The notes under the pieces are model-generated. The model saw nothing but the letters and a program-made list of their open reading frames with translations. It had not been told where the DNA came from and did not search any database. From NCBI GenBank assembly GCA_964346985.1, contig CAYFWW010000048.1:291-64290 (forward strand): a stretch of DNA of 64,000 nt, read 5' to 3'. Each line of letters opens with the position of its first letter. The stretch's first letter is position 1. The DNA comes from an uncultured Actinomycetota bacterium (GTDB lineage Bacteria; Actinomycetota; Aquicultoria; CAYFWW01). Of this stretch, positions 12,506 to 57,692 are shown one piece after another. A program made the translations under genes and the position numbers.

Positions 12506-13777
12506 TTATAAAACTATTGCCTTATCTCCTATATCCCGGCGATAATATATACCGGAATAATCTATTTTATTTAGAGCGTTGTAGGCCCTATCTTTTGCTT
12601 GATGAAAATCTTTACCCTTTGCACTGGCATTAATTACCCGGCCTCCATTTGTGAGTAATTGCCCATTTCTTAAAGCTGTGCCCGCTTGAAATATCACAGC
12701 CCCTTCAACTTTATTGGCAGCTTTTATTCCCTTAATTGGAAATCCTATCTGATATCTAGCAGGGTACCCTTGAGAAGAAGCTACAACAGTAAGGCATTTC
12801 TCTGGGCTCCACTTTAGTTTATAGTCGGCAAGTTTTCCCTCAATAGTTGCCTTCATTATTTCAATTAAATCCGACTCAAGCCTCGGCAATAATGCTTGAG
12901 TCTCCGGGTCGCCAAAACGTACATTAAATTCGAGAACCTTTGGCCCATTGTCAGTAAGAATTAATCCTCCATATATAACACCCCTATAACCAATCTCCCT
13001 ATTTTGTAACTCCTTCATCAATGGTTTAAAAACATCGTTAATTATCTGATTAAACAGTTCTTTTGATACAAAGGGAACGGGTGAATATGCCCCCATTCCT
13101 CCTGTGTTTGGGCCTTTATCATTATCGTATATAGCTTTATGGTCCTGGGCTGGCTCCATTGGAAGAAACTCTTTCCCGTCAGTAAATACAAGAACTGATA
13201 TCTCTTGTCCTGCTAAAAATTCTTCTATCAGCACTTTTTGTCCGGCAACACCAAATTTTTGTTTTAGAAAACATTCTTCCAGCGCGTTTTGTGCTTCATT
13301 AATTGATTTGGCAACTGTCACTCCTTTACCTGCCGCCAAACCATCAGCCTTTACCACAATAGGTGCATCCAAGCCAGATAGATAGGAAGAAGCTTTTTCA
13401 AAGTCGGTAAAGACTTCAGCTTTTCCGGTTGGAACACCGGCTTCTAACATAATCTTTTTAGCAAAACTTTTACTGCCTTCAAGCTGAGCAGCTTTCTGGC
13501 CTGGGCCAAAGACTTTTAATCCTTCCTGTTCAAAAAGATTACCCAATCCTCCGACCAAGGGAGCTTCAGGTCCAATTACTGTTAAGTCAATTTGGTTTTT
13601 TTTAGCAAATTTTAGTAGACCATTATAATCGCTTGAGTTAATATCAATATTCTGTGCAATTTCGGCTGTTCCACCATTACCGGGCGCACAATATAGATTT
13701 TCAATTAAAGGAGAGTCAGATATCTTCCAAGCTAATGAATGTTCCCTGCCACCTTCACCAACAATAAGGATATTCAT
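12506..13777 (-). CDS. purD: Phosphoribosylamine--glycine ligase
   Basis: ATP-grasp GARS family; NILIVGEGGREH N-terminus. Confidence 0.9.
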   Translation of the reverse strand: MNILIVGEGGREHSLAWKISDSPLIENLYCAPGNGGTAEIAQNIDINSSDYNGLLKFAKKNQIDLTVIGPEAPLVGGLGNLFEQEGLKVFGPGQKAAQLEGSKSFAKKIMLEAGVPTGKAEVFTDFEKASSYLSGLDAPIVVKADGLAAGKGVTVAKSINEAQNALEECFLKQKFGVAGQKVLIEEFLAGQEISVLVFTDGKEFLPMEPAQDHKAIYDNDKGPNTGGMGAYSPVPFVSKELFNQIINDVFKPLMKELQNREIGYRGVIYGGLILTDNGPKVLEFNVRFGDPETQALLPRLESDLIEIMKATIEGKLADYKLKWSPEKCLTVVASSQGYPARYQIGFPIKGIKAANKVEGAVIFQAGTALRNGQLLTNGGRVINASAKGKDFHQAKDRAYNALNKIDYSGIYYRRDIGDKAIVL

Positions 13778-13798
13778 CTCTTTCTCTCCTGGATTAAA

Positions 13799-15064
13799 TT
13801 ATAATTCATTGATATTTCCCTGAAATAAAGCGCTAACTTCTTTATCAGTGTATCCATACTCTTGACCATCAGCTTGAATAAGTTTAAGGCCAACCTTATT
13901 TCCGTCATTATTATTGGATTCTATGATATTTCTATTTTTAATTCCCACTGAATAAAGAAAACCTTCCTCTCTTGTATATAGTAGTATAAAATCACCATCA
14001 TGAAGAGATGAAATTCCAGCAAAAGGAGCCTTGCCCAGTCTTTGATACCCATAGATTATAGTTACTCCCTGTCCCGGTTTTGCGCTTTTAGTAAAATAAG
14101 CCGGCCCCTCTTGCAAATTTTCAGGAGAAACACCTTCCAGCACAGGTGAATTTAAGTTCAACCTGGGAATAACCAACCAGGCAAATGCTCCTATTTTTGA
14201 GATTTTTTCTTCAAATGACAAAGGCAGACTGGAATTAACAGAAAGCGGGAGTCCTATTCTTATATCACGAACAACTTTACCATCGGAATTTTTATCGTTT
14301 GTTTCTTTTAGAAGTTTGGAATAAGTCCACTGATTAACAAAGACCAATATAAGAGCAATCAGCAATAAAGCAATAATAATCAGGATATATTGAGGGCGAA
14401 GAAAACGATTCATCATTTTTCTAAACTTAAACCACCTGGCAACTTTCTCTTCAAGTATTAGATTTTCATCTGTTGAAACTGATAGAGGTGTTGAGGAATC
14501 TTCTTCTACTCCATTTTTCGAAATAGGCATAGAATTTTGCTCATTTTGAATCCCAGACTCAATCATCTTTTTTATTTTAATAAATTCTTTTATTCCAGAT
14601 ATTTGTATTTTTTCTAAGATGTTTACTGTTATCGGGTCAATTTTTGAGCGAGTATGTAAAGCTGGCCGGTTCAGTTTTGATAACAGTTTCAATATATTTT
14701 TCGGTTTAGTATGCAGTCTTCTGGCCAACTCTTCTACTTTGATTGGTTTCTGTGGAGCAGTAATAATTTTAATAGTCTGGCTATCTAATTTGTTATACTT
14801 TCCTAAGGGGTCAGCCTTAAGTAATCTTAAACTCTCTTGAATAAATTCCGGGGTTAAATTAAGTATTTGAGCAAGTTTTTCAACAGATAGTTGTCCGCCT
14901 TTATGCTGGTAAAACTCAGAACGGAGTGGGTTTATTTTTTCTTCAGGAATGACGCTTAGGTGATTTTCTGCAATAATTCCATATTCATAAAGTCTTTCTA
15001 TTAATTCATCATTTTCAAGGCCTAATTCTTTGGCATATTCATAGATTCTCTTTCCGGTCATCAA
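13799..15064 (-). CDS. Membrane protein: cytoplasmic IF2_N-like helical repeats, one TM helix, C-terminal class-E-sortase-like domain lacking the catalytic His/Cys/Arg
   Basis: N-terminal RIYEYAKELGL...ERLYEYGI (IF2_N-like), repeated twice more. TM helix ILIIIALLLIALILVFV. C-terminal region aligns to SrtE (IPRLNLNSPVLEGVS...GP.Y....PGQG...GY...APF..L..GD.I...T..G.LYSV), but GHR is GYQ and TLxTC is LKLIQA. Confidence 0.5.
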   Translation of the reverse strand: MMTGKRIYEYAKELGLENDELIERLYEYGIIAENHLSVIPEEKINPLRSEFYQHKGGQLSVEKLAQILNLTPEFIQESLRLLKADPLGKYNKLDSQTIKIITAPQKPIKVEELARRLHTKPKNILKLLSKLNRPALHTRSKIDPITVNILEKIQISGIKEFIKIKKMIESGIQNEQNSMPISKNGVEEDSSTPLSVSTDENLILEEKVARWFKFRKMMNRFLRPQYILIIIALLLIALILVFVNQWTYSKLLKETNDKNSDGKVVRDIRIGLPLSVNSSLPLSFEEKISKIGAFAWLVIPRLNLNSPVLEGVSPENLQEGPAYFTKSAKPGQGVTIIYGYQRLGKAPFAGISSLHDGDFILLYTREEGFLYSVGIKNRNIIESNNNDGNKVGLKLIQADGQEYGYTDKEVSALFQGNINEL

Positions 15065-15196
15065 TACCCTCAGTACAGATTATCAGTACGCAAATACTCC
15101 AAAAGTAATATAACATAAAACAATTAATCGAGGGTCTATTTCTTGGAAATTGTTTAAACTTTATACCTTAAATCTAATCCATGTTAAGCATAGCTT

Positions 15197-17867
<2,671 letters not shown>

Positions 17868-20039: not shown

Positions 20040-20987
20040 CTAAAGTTTTTTACTTAGTTTTCTCCAGTCAAACCAAGTATCAAAGATTCCGATAAGAATT
20101 ATTACAAACAATATAAAAGGAAAAAATAGCATAAACAAAAATAAAAAGAATTTAACCACTGCCCCGAATTTTAATTTTTCAATAAAGAACCAAATAATTG
20201 ATAGCCCTAAGACTATATAGAAGGGAATTGAGAAGAGTAATAGATTTAACCCAATGATATTGGCGTAATTCTCATAAACTCCAAAACTCGATTTAAATAA
20301 AAAAAGAGCGAACCCAATTATGAAAACATAGACAAGAGGCCAGGGAAGATACCAAGAAGAAAACTTAGGTAAAAGTAACGGTTCATCTTTATTCTTAATC
20401 TTCCATAACCAAGCTCCGATCAAAAGAGCAAAAAACGAATTCAAGAAAGCATTTAAAGTTAAGGCAGCCGGCATCAAAGAAATAATAAGAGGGATTGATT
20501 TTTTAATATTTGAAATAAGTTCATCTATCTCGCTTTGTTCAAGTCCCAACTGTTGATAAATATCGGCCTGTTCCCTCAGGGCATCTTCTAAAATTTGCTG
20601 TTGTTCTTTAATATATTCCTTTTTTGAAGTAAGGTAATCATACCCTCCAATAAAAAAGAGAAAACAAGTAACTATAAGAAAACCAACAATAAGAGAGGGT
20701 AATATATGATTACGATTTACCAGAAAACTCATTACCATGCCCATTATTAGAAAGTAAAATACAGAAAGAAATAAGGCATTCAAGCCCAAAATTACTGAAA
20801 TAAAGATAGCAAGAAGTGCTGCCAGAAATGTTTCAGATAGACTTTTCTTTCTAGCTAATAAAATTAAAGGCCCGTTAGCTGCACCTAAAAAAGCTATCCC
20901 GAAAGGAAAAACTAATAAAAAAATAAAAATGGCACCAGCAAGGGCACCATAAATTAGCACTTCCTTAATATCAATCCTGAGTCTCAT
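20040..20987 (-). CDS. DUF2232/YybS-like polytopic membrane protein
   Basis: Multi-TM protein in the conserved position between rpsR and rplI (the yybS position in Firmicutes). Confidence 0.55.
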   Translation of the reverse strand: MRLRIDIKEVLIYGALAGAIFIFLLVFPFGIAFLGAANGPLILLARKKSLSETFLAALLAIFISVILGLNALFLSVFYFLIMGMVMSFLVNRNHILPSLIVGFLIVTCFLFFIGGYDYLTSKKEYIKEQQQILEDALREQADIYQQLGLEQSEIDELISNIKKSIPLIISLMPAALTLNAFLNSFFALLIGAWLWKIKNKDEPLLLPKFSSWYLPWPLVYVFIIGFALFLFKSSFGVYENYANIIGLNLLLFSIPFYIVLGLSIIWFFIEKLKFGAVVKFFLFLFMLFFPFILFVIILIGIFDTWFDWRKLSKKL

Positions 20988-52368: not shown

Positions 52369-54297
52369 TTAGGCAAGCTGGTTTTTTTCAAAATCTAAGA
52401 GAATTTTTTCAATCTCCTGAGCAAATTCTTCCCAATTCAGTTTTTTAGCTTTAGAGTATGCCTTGTCTAACTCTTTCTTAGTTTTAGAATAATCACCAAT
52501 TAAATAATAAAATCTGCATAATTCAAGTTGAAAGGTTAAAGATAACTTAGGATCTTTAATTAAACCAATAATCATTTGAAAGCTGGAAATCGCTTCCTTA
52601 TATGAACCCATTTCAAATTGATCATAGGCTTTATGTATTAAGTCATTAATTATTTTGCTTGTATATTCCGACTCATCGATGAAAGTTGAAACTTTTTTTT
52701 CCAACTTATGAAAAGATACTTCTTTCTCTTCTTTCTCTTCAACCAGAGGGCGAAGATCCTCTCTAATTATCATTTGAATAACTTTATCTTTATCAGCCAC
52801 TTCTTCTTGAACAGTTGAAATTTGACTTGCTCCAGATAATCTAATAAATCCACTTAGCAGAACTATATGGACAATAGCAAAAGCTACATTGTTCATAATA
52901 GAAGGATTGGCCCCAAACCATAACATACCGAAAAATATAGCAATAATCATTAACAAAGTCATAAAGATTTGAGGATATATATGTGGAGTTATGCCTTTTA
53001 TATCAACTCCTTTAGGAGTAACAACAAAACCAAGTTTTCTACCAAAAATAATAGACAGCCAGGCCTTTATATGGACTGGGAACGAACAAAGCGAAAACCA
53101 TAAAGCTCTAAATGTCAGCGTGCCATTGGCCGCATATGCCAGGAAGACAATGTTTATAAAGAGATACGGGAAAAAATGCAACGGATACATATCAGCTTCT
53201 TTTATTGGTTTGATTCCAAAGAAAAGCATGAGTATAGGCATTATTGCATAAATCAAGTAAGCCCATCCTGTAAACCAGTATATTCCGCTTAGAAAATATT
53301 GAATCTTTTGAGGAATTGTTAGATTCTTCAATAATGTATTTTCCTTTATAAATATCTCTAAACCTCCCCGAGCCCATCTAAGCTGCTGGCTAAAATATGA
53401 ACCTACATCTTCTGGTCCTAGGCCTTCTGCCAAAACCTCTGGGTAATAGACTGATTTCCAGCCACGCTCGTGCAGTTTGATGGATAATAATAAATCTTCT
53501 GTAATGGATTCTTCTGGGAGATAACCTATCTGGCGCAGTGATTCGCGGCGAAATACAACATTAGTTCCACAACAAAAAGCTGCGCCTAGCTTATATTTTC
53601 CACGGCAAATTGGGCCATAAAATAACTCTTGTTGTTCAAATGCCCCAGCTGCAATTTTATTCTCCGACTTATTCTTATAAAATTGAGGTGTCTGAACAAA
53701 AGCAATTTTTTCATCTTTGAAAAAACCTAATGTTTTTAAAAGAAACCCAGGATAAGGTGCATGATCACAATCAAAAAAAACAACATAGTGCCCATCTGTC
53801 TGTTTAAGTGCATTATTAATATTTCCAGCCTTGGCTCCCTTACGATCAGGTCTTGAAAAGTATTTAACATGGTATCGAGAAGCTAGTTTTTTAATCATAT
53901 CTGAGGGGCCGTCATCAAGAATATATATCTCTTTATTTGGATGGATAATATTACTTACTGCCTTAATTGTATTTTCTACAATTTCAATAGGTTCATTATA
54001 AACAGGAATAAGAATATCAACCGGTTTAAACCAGATATCTTTGGAAATCTTCACCTGGTCTGGCCATTTCTGATTCAAAGCAGTATACCAAAATCCACTG
54101 ATCTGGATAAAATTAAATAACTCAGCTGAAATCAGTAATATATACAAAACAATATGATCAGGCCGTTTAGAATCCAACATCCAGCTGAAATAATATATGG
54201 CTGCAAAGATTCCAAGAATTGTAAAAACTTTCAAGGAACGTAGGTATCTACTTCTTTCACTTTCAATAGTAAAATTTCTATTTTCCATAAATCTCAT
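52369..54297 (-). CDS. Cellulose-synthase-like processive GT2 (BcsA/CesA-type D,D,D,QxxRW) lacking a PilZ domain, with a novel C-terminal module
   Basis: DDG, DCDH, TED and QQLRW motifs and multi-TM C-terminal half. No RxxxR/DxSxxG PilZ motifs. The C-terminal 86 aa resemble the C-terminus of the 57834..58646 protein. Confidence 0.8.
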   Translation of the reverse strand: MRFMENRNFTIESERSRYLRSLKVFTILGIFAAIYYFSWMLDSKRPDHIVLYILLISAELFNFIQISGFWYTALNQKWPDQVKISKDIWFKPVDILIPVYNEPIEIVENTIKAVSNIIHPNKEIYILDDGPSDMIKKLASRYHVKYFSRPDRKGAKAGNINNALKQTDGHYVVFFDCDHAPYPGFLLKTLGFFKDEKIAFVQTPQFYKNKSENKIAAGAFEQQELFYGPICRGKYKLGAAFCCGTNVVFRRESLRQIGYLPEESITEDLLLSIKLHERGWKSVYYPEVLAEGLGPEDVGSYFSQQLRWARGGLEIFIKENTLLKNLTIPQKIQYFLSGIYWFTGWAYLIYAIMPILMLFFGIKPIKEADMYPLHFFPYLFINIVFLAYAANGTLTFRALWFSLCSFPVHIKAWLSIIFGRKLGFVVTPKGVDIKGITPHIYPQIFMTLLMIIAIFFGMLWFGANPSIMNNVAFAIVHIVLLSGFIRLSGASQISTVQEEVADKDKVIQMIIREDLRPLVEEKEEKEVSFHKLEKKVSTFIDESEYTSKIINDLIHKAYDQFEMGSYKEAISSFQMIIGLIKDPKLSLTFQLELCRFYYLIGDYSKTKKELDKAYSKAKKLNWEEFAQEIEKILLDFEKNQLA

Positions 54298-55895
54298 TCA
54301 CTAAATAAATAAACATCAACATTTGGAAATTTTTTCTTAACTTCATTCGTATATTTATATCTTAAGATAGTCCTGCTTCTGAAAGCTGCCCTTTTCACAA
54401 AGCTTCTCTCTTCGAAGCTGGTAATCATCCAAACCCTTTTTTTGTTCTTGTAAGCCTTGTTTAAATCAAAGGATAGTTCATCCATGCTAGACCTTATTGA
54501 ATTATCGGCAGGCTCAACCCTTGGAAAAGCAATCGCTGGGACTTTACCCTTATAGTAATAAAGGAAAACGTTCTTTATATAATAAGGAACGTATATTACA
54601 GCATCATCCTTTTCAAGGTTTTTTTGAACATACGATATCGCTTTTTGGTTATCATAACGAATTCGATTATTGAGGCTAAAAGACTGGTCTGCCCAAAAAA
54701 TAATCGCGCTAATAGCTAAAATAATCATAAAAAGGCGATAATGATTTTTATCACTTATTGAAGAGATTATACAACCAAAGAATACATAGAGTGGAATAGT
54801 ATAGATAGCAATATATCTAACTATAAACATTTCACGATAAAGACCAATAATATACATTAATAAAAGAGGGACCACAATCCCAATAATAAGATAAAGATAT
54901 TTCAGGCCGGGTGGCCTAACAAAATAGACAAGGATAAATAAGATCAACATTAATAAAGGCCATAAGGAAACAAGGTTTGCAGTTATGTCATCGCTATGGA
55001 AACCAAATAGCGACTGGGTAAAAACCATAAGGATTACATTAAAATTATAGTTACTTCCACTGAGTAAATGTTCTTCTGCAATTCCGACTAAATGCCTTGA
55101 AACCAGGACAAACCTTACCCATGGAAGAAAAAGTATTAATATGGAAACCTGAGAACTTATCCAGATACCAGATGTTTTTAATCTTTCTTTCCAGGTTGAG
55201 TAACTTTTTTTATCCTCCTCAAGGTTCGCTTTATTCTGTATAGAGCGAATAAACCAAAAAATAAAGAAAATATTTTGAAAGACAATCATTAATACTCCGA
55301 AATAAGATGTAAATAACATTAAAGTTGTAAACAGAACATATAATAACCAATAAACCAATTTTGCTTTCTCGAAAAGCTTAAACCCAAAATAGAAAGCAAG
55401 TGTGGCCCAGATTAAGAGAATAATATACATCCTTGCATCCTGTGAATACCAAATAAAAAATGGGGAGAAGCTGAATAAAAAAGCTGTGGTGAAGCCTATT
55501 CTTTCATTGAATAATGACTTACAGACAAAATATACCACTAAAACTAAGATCAATCCAAAGAATAATGACATTGACCTAACAGCAAAAGGGCTCTTTCCAA
55601 AAAAACTCATCCAATAATGAAGAGAAAGATGAAAGAGTGGCGGGTGAACGCCGTGTGCCATTGTTGAAATAATGTCTCTTGGGCTCTGGCTTGCTTGTAT
55701 AATGCTTGTGCACTCATCTAACCAAAGGTCACGGGAGTTAATTCCTACCAACCTTAATACAAAAGAATTTATTAGAAGAAATATAACACCAGCAATCTCA
55801 ACTTTAGCCGAATATATTTTTCCAATAATATTTTTCAAATAAACACTTTTTCCTTTTTGAATGTTAATAATATTTTCTACCATAAGAGTCAACAA
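54294..55895 (-). CDS. GT-C fold glycosyltransferase (PMT/ArnT/GT39-GT83-like)
   Basis: More than 10 TM helices; DE motif (WLDEC) in the first extracytoplasmic loop; translationally coupled to the BcsA-like gene. Confidence 0.7.
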   Translation of the reverse strand: MLTLMVENIINIQKGKSVYLKNIIGKIYSAKVEIAGVIFLLINSFVLRLVGINSRDLWLDECTSIIQASQSPRDIISTMAHGVHPPLFHLSLHYWMSFFGKSPFAVRSMSLFFGLILVLVVYFVCKSLFNERIGFTTAFLFSFSPFFIWYSQDARMYIILLIWATLAFYFGFKLFEKAKLVYWLLYVLFTTLMLFTSYFGVLMIVFQNIFFIFWFIRSIQNKANLEEDKKSYSTWKERLKTSGIWISSQVSILILFLPWVRFVLVSRHLVGIAEEHLLSGSNYNFNVILMVFTQSLFGFHSDDITANLVSLWPLLMLILFILVYFVRPPGLKYLYLIIGIVVPLLLMYIIGLYREMFIVRYIAIYTIPLYVFFGCIISSISDKNHYRLFMIILAISAIIFWADQSFSLNNRIRYDNQKAISYVQKNLEKDDAVIYVPYYIKNVFLYYYKGKVPAIAFPRVEPADNSIRSSMDELSFDLNKAYKNKKRVWMITSFEERSFVKRAAFRSRTILRYKYTNEVKKKFPNVDVYLFSE

Positions 55896-56032: not shown

Positions 56033-56125
56033 AGTGGTTGGCAATCACCCGAAAGGGCAAACCCATCTAAAGGTGGGGACGCAAAACCAAGGATCCGAAT
56101 GGATAGCCTGGTTGCCGAAGGTGAG
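56033..56125 (+). ncRNA. c-di-GMP-I (GEMM) riboswitch
   Basis: Conserved GEMM-I blocks: GGGCAAACC, P2 hairpin CCCAUC-UAAA-GGUGGG, GGGACGCAAAACC junction, 3' GGUUGCCGAAGG (compare the GEMM block GGGUUACCGAAGG). GC-rich island in AT-rich DNA directly 5' of the GH26-like gene; its 3' end overlaps the SD (AAGGUG). Confidence 0.75.
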
Positions 56126-56129
56126 AGAG

Positions 56130-57692
56130 TTGAAAACAAATTATAAATTTAAAAAAATATTCTTAATCATAACCAGCTTCTTAATGTTACTTCTGTTTGC
56201 CAGTCCCGTCACAGCCCAGACAACATTACCTGAACCACTCAGAGGAAATACACTTATTGGTTATTTTGTTCCAGGATCCCCGGCAACAAATAACCTAATA
56301 GATTTAGAGACAAAAACCGATCGCAAGGCCGATATTGTTTTATACTATCAAGACTGGACATATGGTTTAATCAATCAGAATGTTCGAAATGTTTTGAATC
56401 ATGGCTCAATTCCACTGCTAACTTGGATACCATGCAAAGGCGGAGCTGGGACAAACCAACCTGATTATCGTTTAAAAAACATTACAAATGGTAAATTCGA
56501 CCAATATTTAAGAGAATCTGCTAGAGCTGCCAGAAACACTGGAGAGACAATCTGGTTAAGGCCTTTCCATGAGATGAACGGTAACTGGTCTTCGTATTCA
56601 GGTACAACCAACGGAAATAGTCCAGAAGATTTTATCCCAGCCTGGCGGCATATAGTTGATATCTTTAGACAAGAAGGAGCAGATAATGTTTTATTTGTCT
56701 GGTCTCCCAATACAAATTCAGTACCTGATACTCCCGAGAATGCCATTAGTGTATACTTCCCGGGTGATGACTATGTAGATATTATTGGAATCGATGGATA
56801 TAATTGGGGCACAAGCCAATCTTGGTCTCATTGGAACTCATTTTATGACACTTTTGTTAAATCGTATAAAACTTGCACTTCTCTAAGCAAAAAACCAATA
56901 ATCATTGCTGAAACAGGCTCGTCAGAAAAAGGTGGAGACAAAGCCGCATGGATTAAAGATACTTTTAACACAATATATAATGATTTTCCACGAATTAAAG
57001 GGCTAGTCTGGTTTAATATCAATAAAGAAACGGACTGGAGAATCGAATCTTCAATAGCTAGTCTAGAATCTTTCAAAAGTATAGTTGCAGAAAACGCAAA
57101 TAGTAAAAATATTATACAATTTGTAATGAAGTTCAACAAAAATACAAGCCAAGATAGAATTGAACAAATACTATATGATTACAACTTAACAGTTATATCC
57201 GGGCCTTCAAAAAATAACTACTACTATTTAGAGACTCAACCGGGAATAAACTTCAATAAACTTGTTTCAGCTCTCTCTGGACTTCCAGAAATTACCAGAA
57301 TAGACCGTAATTATTCTTATCGTGTAAATACAAGTACTGGGTTAGGAGCTGGAGAATCCATAAATAATATATTGGCGGCAAATGATAATTATAAGGGTGG
57401 AGCCAAAGCAGAATCTTCCTTCAGCCAAGCAGCCAACCAAACCTATAATACTTCCCCTATTTTGGAAGATTCTGCTTCACCTCTTTTGGCAAAAGAAAAT
57501 TTATTACAATCATCTTTTAAAATAGATTTTCCAAATAGTCTTTTCAGCAATAGTTTCGCTGTTAATATCTATAAAAAAACAGATAAAGAATCAAGTTACC
57601 TGCCTAATCTGAATCAATTTTCCGCTTTAATTATGCTCATTATAGTTTCCGGGACTTCAGTCCTACTTTATAAACAAAAAATAATGGCATAA
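56130..57692 (+). CDS. GH26-like glycoside hydrolase paralog with signal peptide and C-terminal extension
   Basis: RPFHEMNGNWSSYSG, FVWSPN, YFPGDDYVDIIGIDGYNWG and IIIAETGS motifs. Start set to TTG 56130 (RBS AAGGTG; signal peptide KTNYKFKKIFLIITSFLMLLLFASPVTAQ). The track ORF (from 56034) reads through the riboswitch. Confidence 0.7.
   Translation: MKTNYKFKKIFLIITSFLMLLLFASPVTAQTTLPEPLRGNTLIGYFVPGSPATNNLIDLETKTDRKADIVLYYQDWTYGLINQNVRNVLNHGSIPLLTWIPCKGGAGTNQPDYRLKNITNGKFDQYLRESARAARNTGETIWLRPFHEMNGNWSSYSGTTNGNSPEDFIPAWRHIVDIFRQEGADNVLFVWSPNTNSVPDTPENAISVYFPGDDYVDIIGIDGYNWGTSQSWSHWNSFYDTFVKSYKTCTSLSKKPIIIAETGSSEKGGDKAAWIKDTFNTIYNDFPRIKGLVWFNINKETDWRIESSIASLESFKSIVAENANSKNIIQFVMKFNKNTSQDRIEQILYDYNLTVISGPSKNNYYYLETQPGINFNKLVSALSGLPEITRIDRNYSYRVNTSTGLGAGESINNILAANDNYKGGAKAESSFSQAANQTYNTSPILEDSASPLLAKENLLQSSFKIDFPNSLFSNSFAVNIYKKTDKESSYLPNLNQFSALIMLIIVSGTSVLLYKQKIMA

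Follow-up and report, generated by a model that had tools for sequence, protein, structure and literature searches.

A catalytically dead, sortase-derived ectodomain carries a cytoplasmic IF2_N-type module shared with LCP ligases and is encoded between purA and purD in an uncultured Actinomycetota bacterium

The window analysed here, a stretch of 64,000 nucleotides from contig CAYFWW010000048.1 (assembly GCA_964346985.1), belongs to a deep, uncultured, low-GC actinobacterial lineage and carries, between purA (15197-16477) and purD (12506-13777), a reverse-strand gene for a membrane protein that joins cytoplasmic IF2_N-type repeats, a single transmembrane (TM) helix and a sortase-fold ectodomain without catalytic residues (Table 1). 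A sequence-only reading of this DNA had placed an open reading frame (ORF) at 13799-15064 (-), counting 421 amino acids (aa) from TTG 15064; the frame is borne out, and its residue numbering is used throughout. The true start is almost certainly one codon further in, at ATG 15061-15059 (giving 420 aa), because a ribosome-binding site (RBS; GAGGG, 15067-15071) lies 5 nt upstream of this codon and because the database copies and the orthologue all start with MTGKR. Three 420-aa database proteins (P0382, P0383 and P0001) are identical or near-identical copies, the ORF is undisrupted in four assemblies of the window species as well as in a sister species, and its third-position GC content (GC3) resembles that of the neighbouring genes.

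Table 1. Layout of the pseudo-sortase gene and its flanks (residues numbered in the 421-aa frame; identity is to the sister-species orthologue).
Feature	Residues	Position	Strand	Identity	Remarks
Complete gene (IF2_N repeats, TM helix, pseudo-sortase)		13799-15061	-		420 aa; ATG 15061-15059, TAA 13801-13799
Repeat 1	2-52	14909-15061	-	66%	Firm IF2_N, 38.1 bits alone
Repeat 2	53-105	14750-14908	-	46%	Motif h-x-V-x-x-L-A-x-x-L-x-L
Repeat 3 and conserved tail	106-171	14552-14749	-	52%	Weak IF2_N; tail RSK(I/V)DPIT(V/I)N..EK(I/V)Q
Linker and juxtamembrane segment	172-225	14390-14551	-	20%	Acidic/polar and poorly conserved, then basic RWFKFRKMMNRFLR
TM helix	226-246	14327-14389	-	37%	Sole Kyte-Doolittle peak in the protein (3.15)
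Extracytoplasmic stalk	247-291	14192-14326	-	28%	pLDDT 50-65 in the AF2 model
Sortase-fold beta-barrel without catalytic residues	292-421	13802-14191	-	57% (291-372), 33% (373-420)	Pfam, hhalign, AF2 and Foldseek
Catalytic His position (GHR to GYQ, beta4)	Tyr340	14045-14047	-		Phe in orthologue
Catalytic Cys position (TLxTC, here LKLIQA, beta7)	Ala398	13871-13873	-		Ala in orthologue (LKLVTA)
Conserved Arg position (beta8)	Asp407-Lys408	13841-13846	-		Arg-Arg in orthologue
Spacer to purD (21 nt)		13778-13798	-		purD RBS GGAGAG inside; no terminator
Conserved intergenic block		15099-15123	-		Putative extended -10 TGTTATATT; invariant columns 88-112 of alignment A5

Sortases, the enzymes that anchor proteins to the cell wall, are treated in textbooks as cysteine transpeptidases and are also drug targets; class E is their housekeeping class in Actinomycetota. 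Sequence comparison leaves no doubt that the first two-thirds of the barrel are homologous to these enzymes: the Pfam Sortase model (PF04203; MEROPS family C60) matches over profile positions 1-79 of 125 at 41.3 bits (E 1.5e-10), above its cutoff of 26.6, hhalign against 64 sortases returns a probability of 99.3% (E 1.9e-20, residues 283-384), and phmmer against the PDB aligns residues 293-373 with Streptomyces avermitilis SrtE and Bacillus anthracis SrtA, setting GHR over GYQ. Class E is the best NCBIfam class (NF033747, 45.2 bits; class D reaches 33 bits), but the score falls well below the curated class E cutoff of 160 bits, such that the earlier “class E” label stands as a nearest class and not as membership. 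The same reading had aligned the entire barrel to SrtE-type sortases; this holds for the first two-thirds, whereas the last ~37 residues give no significant local alignment to sortases and are placed only by global MAFFT alignment (LKLIQA under LTLTTC, DKEVSA under (Q)RLAVRA), by hmmalign (in which the orthologue’s LKLVTA falls under LTLTTC) and by the closing strands of a structural model.

That model, an AlphaFold2 (AF2) prediction from a 111-sequence multiple sequence alignment, has a mean confidence (pLDDT) of 79.9 and a predicted TM-score (pTM) of 0.73, with the closing strands at residues 392-399 and 408-417 at pLDDT 65-89. Its Foldseek comparison with the PDB returns sortases only (best E 2e-9, TM-score ~0.6, classes A and E on top), although the alignment behind the model was made of true sortases, so that the fold match is partly built in and fits the homology without being independent support for it. 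Run on the whole protein as a single sequence, AF2 reaches pLDDT 42, too low for use. Profile comparison and structure prediction, the two checks proposed for the fold, thus agree, and they show that the ectodomain descends from a class-E-like sortase and has kept the beta-barrel.

What it has not kept is the catalytic apparatus. The predicted His-to-Tyr replacement at residue 340 is robust, because the alignment around this position is confident. The Cys column is less tightly fixed, its register differing by 2 between alignments (Ala398 in alignment A2, Ile396 in A3), but the Cys is lost whatever the register, since there are zero cysteines anywhere in the window protein or in its orthologue. 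Both replacements had been claimed from the sequence alone and both are confirmed: His and Cys are gone in all four assemblies of the species and in the 44%-identical orthologue (which has Phe and Ala at these positions and whose ectodomain contains no histidine at all), so that the loss is not a sequencing artefact. The accompanying claim that the conserved Arg is absent needs narrowing: in the window protein the column falls on D407 or on K408, according to the register chosen, and the orthologue has Arg-Arg there. With the His-Cys dyad lost and no Cys in the whole protein, these predicted sequences show that the ectodomain cannot be a cysteine transpeptidase. We accordingly file the protein as sortase-derived and not as a sortase: it lacks the His and the Cys and scores below the class E threshold.

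It could be argued that the barrel is an active enzyme with altered chemistry, using a Ser, Thr or Tyr nucleophile or acting as a peptidase or binding-coupled hydrolase through other barrel residues, given that in many nearby sortase clusters Ser stands where the Cys would be and Arg where the His would be. We consider this very improbable: the nucleophile position is Ala, not Ser, in both orthologues, the His position is Tyr or Phe, there is no conserved histidine in the ectodomain, and the Arg position of the window protein is D or K.

Other sortase homologues are without the triad as well: among the 142 nearest sortase clusters, 44 do not show a complete H/C/R set at the aligned columns (33 by substitution, 11 by gaps or truncation). 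These include a recurrent actinobacterial group (P0006, P0009, P0036, P0038, P0086 and others) in which His is replaced by Arg and Cys by Ser, Ala or Gly; its members begin with a cytoplasmic tail, carry two extra TM helices at the C-terminus that finish in LPATL, LPSTL or LPNLL, and are labeled “sortase A” or “LPXTG-site transpeptidase family” in the source databases. A full-text literature search found no published function for these P0006-type homologues and no paper on naturally non-catalytic sortase domains. A sizeable share of homologues annotated “sortase A” or “class E sortase” is hence without the triad, which matters both for annotation and for inferring surface anchoring from gene content.

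On the other side of the membrane, the cytoplasmic sequence reads as three copies of one helix-turn-helix (HTH)-like motif. The whole protein matches Pfam IF2_N at 55.4 bits (gathering threshold 25.3), and a profile of the module aligns with the first 55 residues (1-55) of the Thermus IF2 structures 4b3x and 4b43 (E 1.4e-6). Taken singly, the repeats are unequal. Repeat 3 reaches 21.9 bits (E 1.5e-4), under the cutoff, while repeat 2 gives no IF2_N match, only faint GntR, HTH_11 and AsnC-type matches under their cutoffs, with its counterpart in the orthologue scoring 12.5 bits for IF2_N. The cytoplasmic IF2_N-type module and the topology described earlier are therefore upheld, but of the three IF2_N-like repeats then proposed only the first is firm, the third being weak and the second HTH-like only. 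Across all four module sequences the block RS.DP.T.N is invariant. The net charge is +5 before the TM segment and +1 after it, which by the positive-inside rule implies an N-in/C-out orientation, as in ordinary sortases. The stalk that follows the membrane helix retains, at residues 270-283 (14216-14257, -), the motif I.IG.PL....LP(L/V)S in both species (IGLPLSVNSSLPLS versus IGAPLTSTTELPVS); this loosely resembles an LPxS/T sorting motif and, from its sequence, could be a tethered pseudo-substrate docking on the barrel.

The module also occurs outside this family. Two further proteins, P0002 and P0003, have only the N-terminal module in common with the window protein (49-54% identity over 170 aa) and carry instead the LytR_cpsA_psr ectodomain of the LCP (LytR-CpsA-Psr) family, whose members ligate glycopolymers to the wall: P0002 combines IF2_N with a full-length LytR_cpsA_psr profile match of 148.8 bits, and P0003, like the loci L055 and L056, encodes the module followed by LCP and LysM domains. 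The window protein itself contains no LytR_cpsA_psr domain, this being confined to the paralogues that share its N-module. P0002 and the pseudo-sortase orthologue are encoded in one and the same metagenome-assembled genome (MAG; GCA_964346885.1). The genes for the LCP proteins stand at unrelated loci, that of P0003 adjoining Wzy_C and acyltransferase_3 genes. As a separate observation, the LCP paralogue of GCA_964347095.1 is broken by an in-frame TAG in repeat 2 (L003 2999-3001, the same in L004), whereas the same gene from another metagenome (L056 560-1051) has a Tyr codon there (ILNYDPEG versus ILN*DPAG); the TAG therefore reflects either a point mutation or an error of assembly, the true protein having the complete three-repeat module, LCP and LysM.

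Because an LCP enzyme carries this module too, an adaptor of envelope assembly is the better reading than a sigma-factor binder. An anti-sigma-like sensor, as had been suggested for this protein, was considered and rejected, with neither domain nor context evidence to commend it: zf-HC2, RsgI_N and RskA-type anti-sigma domains give no Pfam or NCBIfam match even at E<=10, and no sigma-factor gene lies near the locus, where each of the three genomes has purA, purD and housekeeping genes as neighbours.

To ask how the protein has evolved requires a second species, and the family offers one. The closest non-self PurA (74% identical) belongs to the MAG GCA_964346885.1, in which purA is followed by a 417-aa IF2_N+Sortase protein and then by purD (68% identical to the window purD). 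This positional orthologue (P0385, L057:4839-6089) is 44% identical to the window protein end to end (E 2e-121) and colinear with it, with 4-5 gapped residues in MAFFT and 11 in BLASTP. It was missed by the search of cluster representatives because its 90% cluster is filed under a 48-aa fragment, P0386, named “lysophospholipid acyltransferase 1/2”; such clustering artefacts can hide family members, and “no hits” in a representative search is no proof of absence. With that proviso, HMMER against 1.84 billion cluster representatives found three kinds of match and nothing else (a 97%-identical copy, two module-only proteins, and ordinary sortases aligned at residues ~290-373), and a word-indexed homologue search returned the 97%-identical copy only. 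A scan of genome contigs with the single protein as query gave no match; with the N-module alignment, whose IF2_N patterns are generic, the matches listed were mostly real IF2 genes. Specific repeat-3 patterns recovered the same three lineages from metagenomes, and no others.

Nei-Gojobori dN/dS (non-synonymous over synonymous divergence) against the orthologue is ~0.13 in the N-terminal part of the barrel, ~0.40 in its C-terminal part and 0.21 overall, values that are upper-bound-like, as dS is saturated between the two species. Together with the regional identities (Table 1), these figures show purifying selection between the two species on the cytoplasmic repeats and on the front two-thirds of the barrel, in a protein that is in use, not decaying; at 57% identity and dN/dS ~0.13, the front of the barrel is a dead domain held by selection. 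Our reading is of a protein constrained in its module and barrel front, with the former substrate-groove and active-site end free or fast-evolving.

The position of the gene was the feature that had seemed most striking, namely its location in a purine operon with only a 21-nt gap to purD. Both details are exact: the 21-nt spacing is identical in the sister species (L057), as is the purA-purD context, and the RBS is also kept between the two. Given this conserved gap and the lack of a terminator within it, co-transcription with purD and the pur genes downstream is very likely on sequence grounds, and the gene may head that unit. A scan for promoters and terminators gave signals at background level only, and an Rfam search with a permissive threshold turned up no RNA element within the gene or beside it. 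The spacer to purA (132-145 nt) has diverged between the species except for a single 25-nt block at 15099-15123, which contains TG (15114-15115) and TATATT (15107-15112) ~40 nt upstream of the start codon and reads as a putative extended -10 promoter. The block is invariant in the window, L001 and L057 and includes the near-palindrome GTTATATTAC. It occurs once in the 64-kb window, where zero occurrences would be expected by chance; further copies were sought there and none were found, hence no sign of a regulon motif.

More distant relatives resolve the history of this arrangement. Where PurA is 62-64% identical (L060-L063), purA abuts purD, within an otherwise conserved order S6-SSB-L9-DnaB-FAD oxidoreductase-purA-purD-purE-purB-purC; the named PurA neighbours are Actinomycetota MAGs, among them Candidatus Aquicultor and Candidatus Oleimmundimicrobium. 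Because purA and purD are adjacent in these relatives, the gene is a clade-specific insertion that took place in the common ancestor of the two species, and not an ancestral pur-associated gene. A recent horizontally transferred cassette was rejected as an explanation, the GC3 being like that of the neighbours and the insertion older than the species split. A lineage-specific insertion with its own conserved promoter-like element provides no evidence of a purine-related role; of the earlier proposal the placement and very probable co-transcription with purD survive, with nothing to tie the protein itself to purine metabolism, and the pur placement is best taken as an insertion rather than as a metabolic connection. 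In two related Actinomycetota MAGs (L058, 5359-7602, -, and L059, 5236-7479, -) the same junction holds a different inserted gene, for a 747-aa PTPS_related (PF10131) membrane protein, on the strand opposite to the pur genes and overlapping the end of purA; envelope-protein genes seem to land recurrently between purA and purD.

The locus also invites the idea of a membrane-tethered regulator or coupling factor, whose repeats would bind DNA or NusA, RNA polymerase (RNAP) or the ribosome while the barrel senses wall peptides, controlling the downstream pur genes or others in the manner of ToxR/CadC-type one-component membrane regulators. To our knowledge IF2_N does not bind DNA, and where repeats 2 and 3 do match HTH models (GntR, Rrf2, Fe_dep_repress, AsnC-type), which would speak for such a function, the matches are faint and all lie under curated cutoffs. 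The gene does head the purD-purF block behind the conserved promoter-like block with its near-palindrome, but that block is a single occurrence in 64 kb, the operon position is a recent insertion, and the presence of the module on an LCP enzyme at unrelated loci means that it is not pur-specific. In favor of a coupling role, the N1 domain of Escherichia coli IF2 binds NusA (PMC12297416). On balance we regard a regulator of this kind as unlikely, though it is the strongest of the alternatives to a role in the envelope.

We favor, with a probability of roughly 45%, a non-catalytic scaffold or binding partner in cell wall anchoring, in which the cytoplasmic module is a shared adaptor. The module would bring LCP and sortase-like ectodomains to the same cytoplasmic partner or site; outside the membrane, the dead barrel would bind a ligand or partner (candidates being a peptide or stem peptide, an active sortase, or an LCP enzyme) and would modulate or organize anchoring rather than catalyze it. 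The pur-operon location would then be a historical accident that provides constitutive, growth-linked expression.

Several observations weigh against this scaffold proposal, beyond the partly built-in fold match noted above. The family is seen in two species only, and the partner or ligand of the dead barrel is at the candidate stage. Sortases, LCPs and LPXTG/LAXTG-type sorting signals were sought in the 64-kb window and none were found; the search for LPXTG/LAXTG substrates suggested by the sequence-only reading was thus run, for this window, and returned no protein with such a signal. Conservation is lowest in the part of the barrel that corresponds to the sorting-signal groove of real sortases (beta6/beta7 loop and beta7-beta8, residues 373-421; 33% identity, dN/dS ~0.4), which argues against canonical LPXTG binding. 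Between two strains of 98.8% DNA identity, moreover, the gene has accumulated 13 non-synonymous and 6 synonymous changes (4 and 0, respectively, in the last 48 residues), a pN/pS (the within-species counterpart of dN/dS) of 0.61 that is the highest of the clearly diverged genes in the neighborhood, where pur and replication genes range from 0.05 to 0.40, and that suggests either relaxed constraint or a fast-evolving surface.

The narrow distribution and the elevated pN/pS, along with the poorly conserved C-terminal third of the barrel and the loss of all catalytic residues, are also what would be expected of an evolutionary relic, an LCP-type N-module with a degenerate sortase that is expressed but functionless and merely carried in an essential operon. 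Such a relic is hard to square with the comparison between species, in which synonymous sites are saturated and yet the ORF is intact, colinear and 57-66% identical in repeat 1 and the N-terminal part of the barrel, with dN/dS at 0.13-0.21, GC3 like that of the neighbours, and both the RBS and the 21-nt spacing to purD conserved; we think it improbable, if less so than an altered enzyme. Only one other neighborhood gene has a high pN/pS, a DUF2232 membrane-protein gene between ssb and rplI (20040-20987, -), at 1.11 from five changes only (4 non-synonymous, 1 synonymous).

A more ambitious version of the scaffold proposal, which we hold to be rather improbable, would have the three-repeat IF2_N module, as a novel type of adaptor tethered to the membrane, recruit the expression machinery, or a cytoskeletal or divisome element, to sites of wall ligation, with the dead barrel as substrate receptor. 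If this were true, NusA/RNAP or initiating ribosomes would be recruited, by analogy with IF2 N1, and the barrel would pass sorting-signal or glycosylated substrates to the LCP/sortase pathway, making the protein a new non-enzymatic organizer that couples the synthesis and anchoring of surface molecules; it might then be one case of a far larger pseudo-sortase population in Actinomycetota.

Elsewhere in the window, a c-di-GMP-I-GGC riboswitch (cyclic di-GMP class) was found at 56047-56120 (+) with 65.7 bits, the gathering score being 59. A GH26-like glycoside hydrolase ORF (56034-57692) follows directly downstream, its listed start overlapped by the riboswitch, and next to these come genes for a cellulose-synthase-like GT2 protein (52369-54297) and for a PMT_2 membrane glycosyltransferase (54294-55895). 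Together they look like a cyclic di-GMP-controlled exopolysaccharide locus.

Comparison with known systems places these features in context. Catalytically dead paralogues that regulate wall enzymes are known elsewhere, the LytM factors EnvC and NlpD being examples. As in the window protein, an enzyme fold is kept in EnvC and NlpD without its catalytic residues, and RodZ-type bitopic adaptors likewise combine a cytoplasmic HTH-like protein-binding domain, one TM helix and an extracytoplasmic domain; in both cases the resemblance is one of analogy only, with no relationship in sequence or fold and no profile matches. Homology can be claimed for the N-terminal domain of bacterial IF2 (IF2N/N1, PF04760, as in Thermus 4b3x), a small helical protein-interaction domain that repeat 1 resembles over ~55 residues. 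In E. coli IF2 the N1 domain is a protein-protein interaction module that binds NusA (PMC12297416). The module in the window differs from the IF2 N-terminus in comprising three repeats, in being tethered to the membrane and in having no GTPase.

For the ectodomain, the best sequence and structure matches are the class E sortases (S. avermitilis SrtE, 5go5; Streptomyces coelicolor SrtE1, 5cuw; Thermobifida fusca SrtE, 9iok), LAXTG-specific enzymes of Actinomycetota and Bacillota, with which it has in common a type II topology with one N-terminal TM helix, an eight-stranded beta-barrel and the motifs IPxL/VxEG/GPxY/PGxG/PF..L..GD/Y.V. Unlike these, the window protein has the catalytic His and Cys replaced (and, as aligned, the Arg, which its orthologue has) and contains no cysteine anywhere, its beta6-beta8 region is divergent, and it bears a folded cytoplasmic domain of ~220 aa that is absent from ordinary class E sortases. 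The P0006 group resembles the window protein in other ways: it too has the sortase fold with the catalytic residues replaced, it is among the nearest neighbours of the window protein, and two of its members (P0036 and P0086) share the motif IYG(R/Y)Q with it. That group differs in having C-terminal membrane helices and no IF2_N repeats, in mostly keeping the Arg, and in its high-GC hosts. Set beside them, the window family adds a sortase barrel that has been kept by selection across species without its His and Cys.

The LCP ligases of the same host clade provide a parallel in overall architecture, with the three-repeat module followed, as in the window protein, by one TM helix. They differ in an apparently intact phosphotransferase ectodomain, with or without LysM, and in loci near Wzy_C or TPR genes. 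Each of the two ectodomains comes from a family of enzymes that join polymers to peptidoglycan or lipid-linked precursors, and a working connection between the two has been described in Actinomyces oris, where an LCP enzyme and the housekeeping sortase share a substrate, which the former glycosylates (PMC6381275). The union of a three-repeat IF2_N module with a dead sortase, and the sharing of this module with LCP enzymes, appear to be undescribed; a cytoplasmic domain swapped between two families of wall-ligating ectodomains points to a cytoplasmic partner that positions or controls the anchoring machinery.

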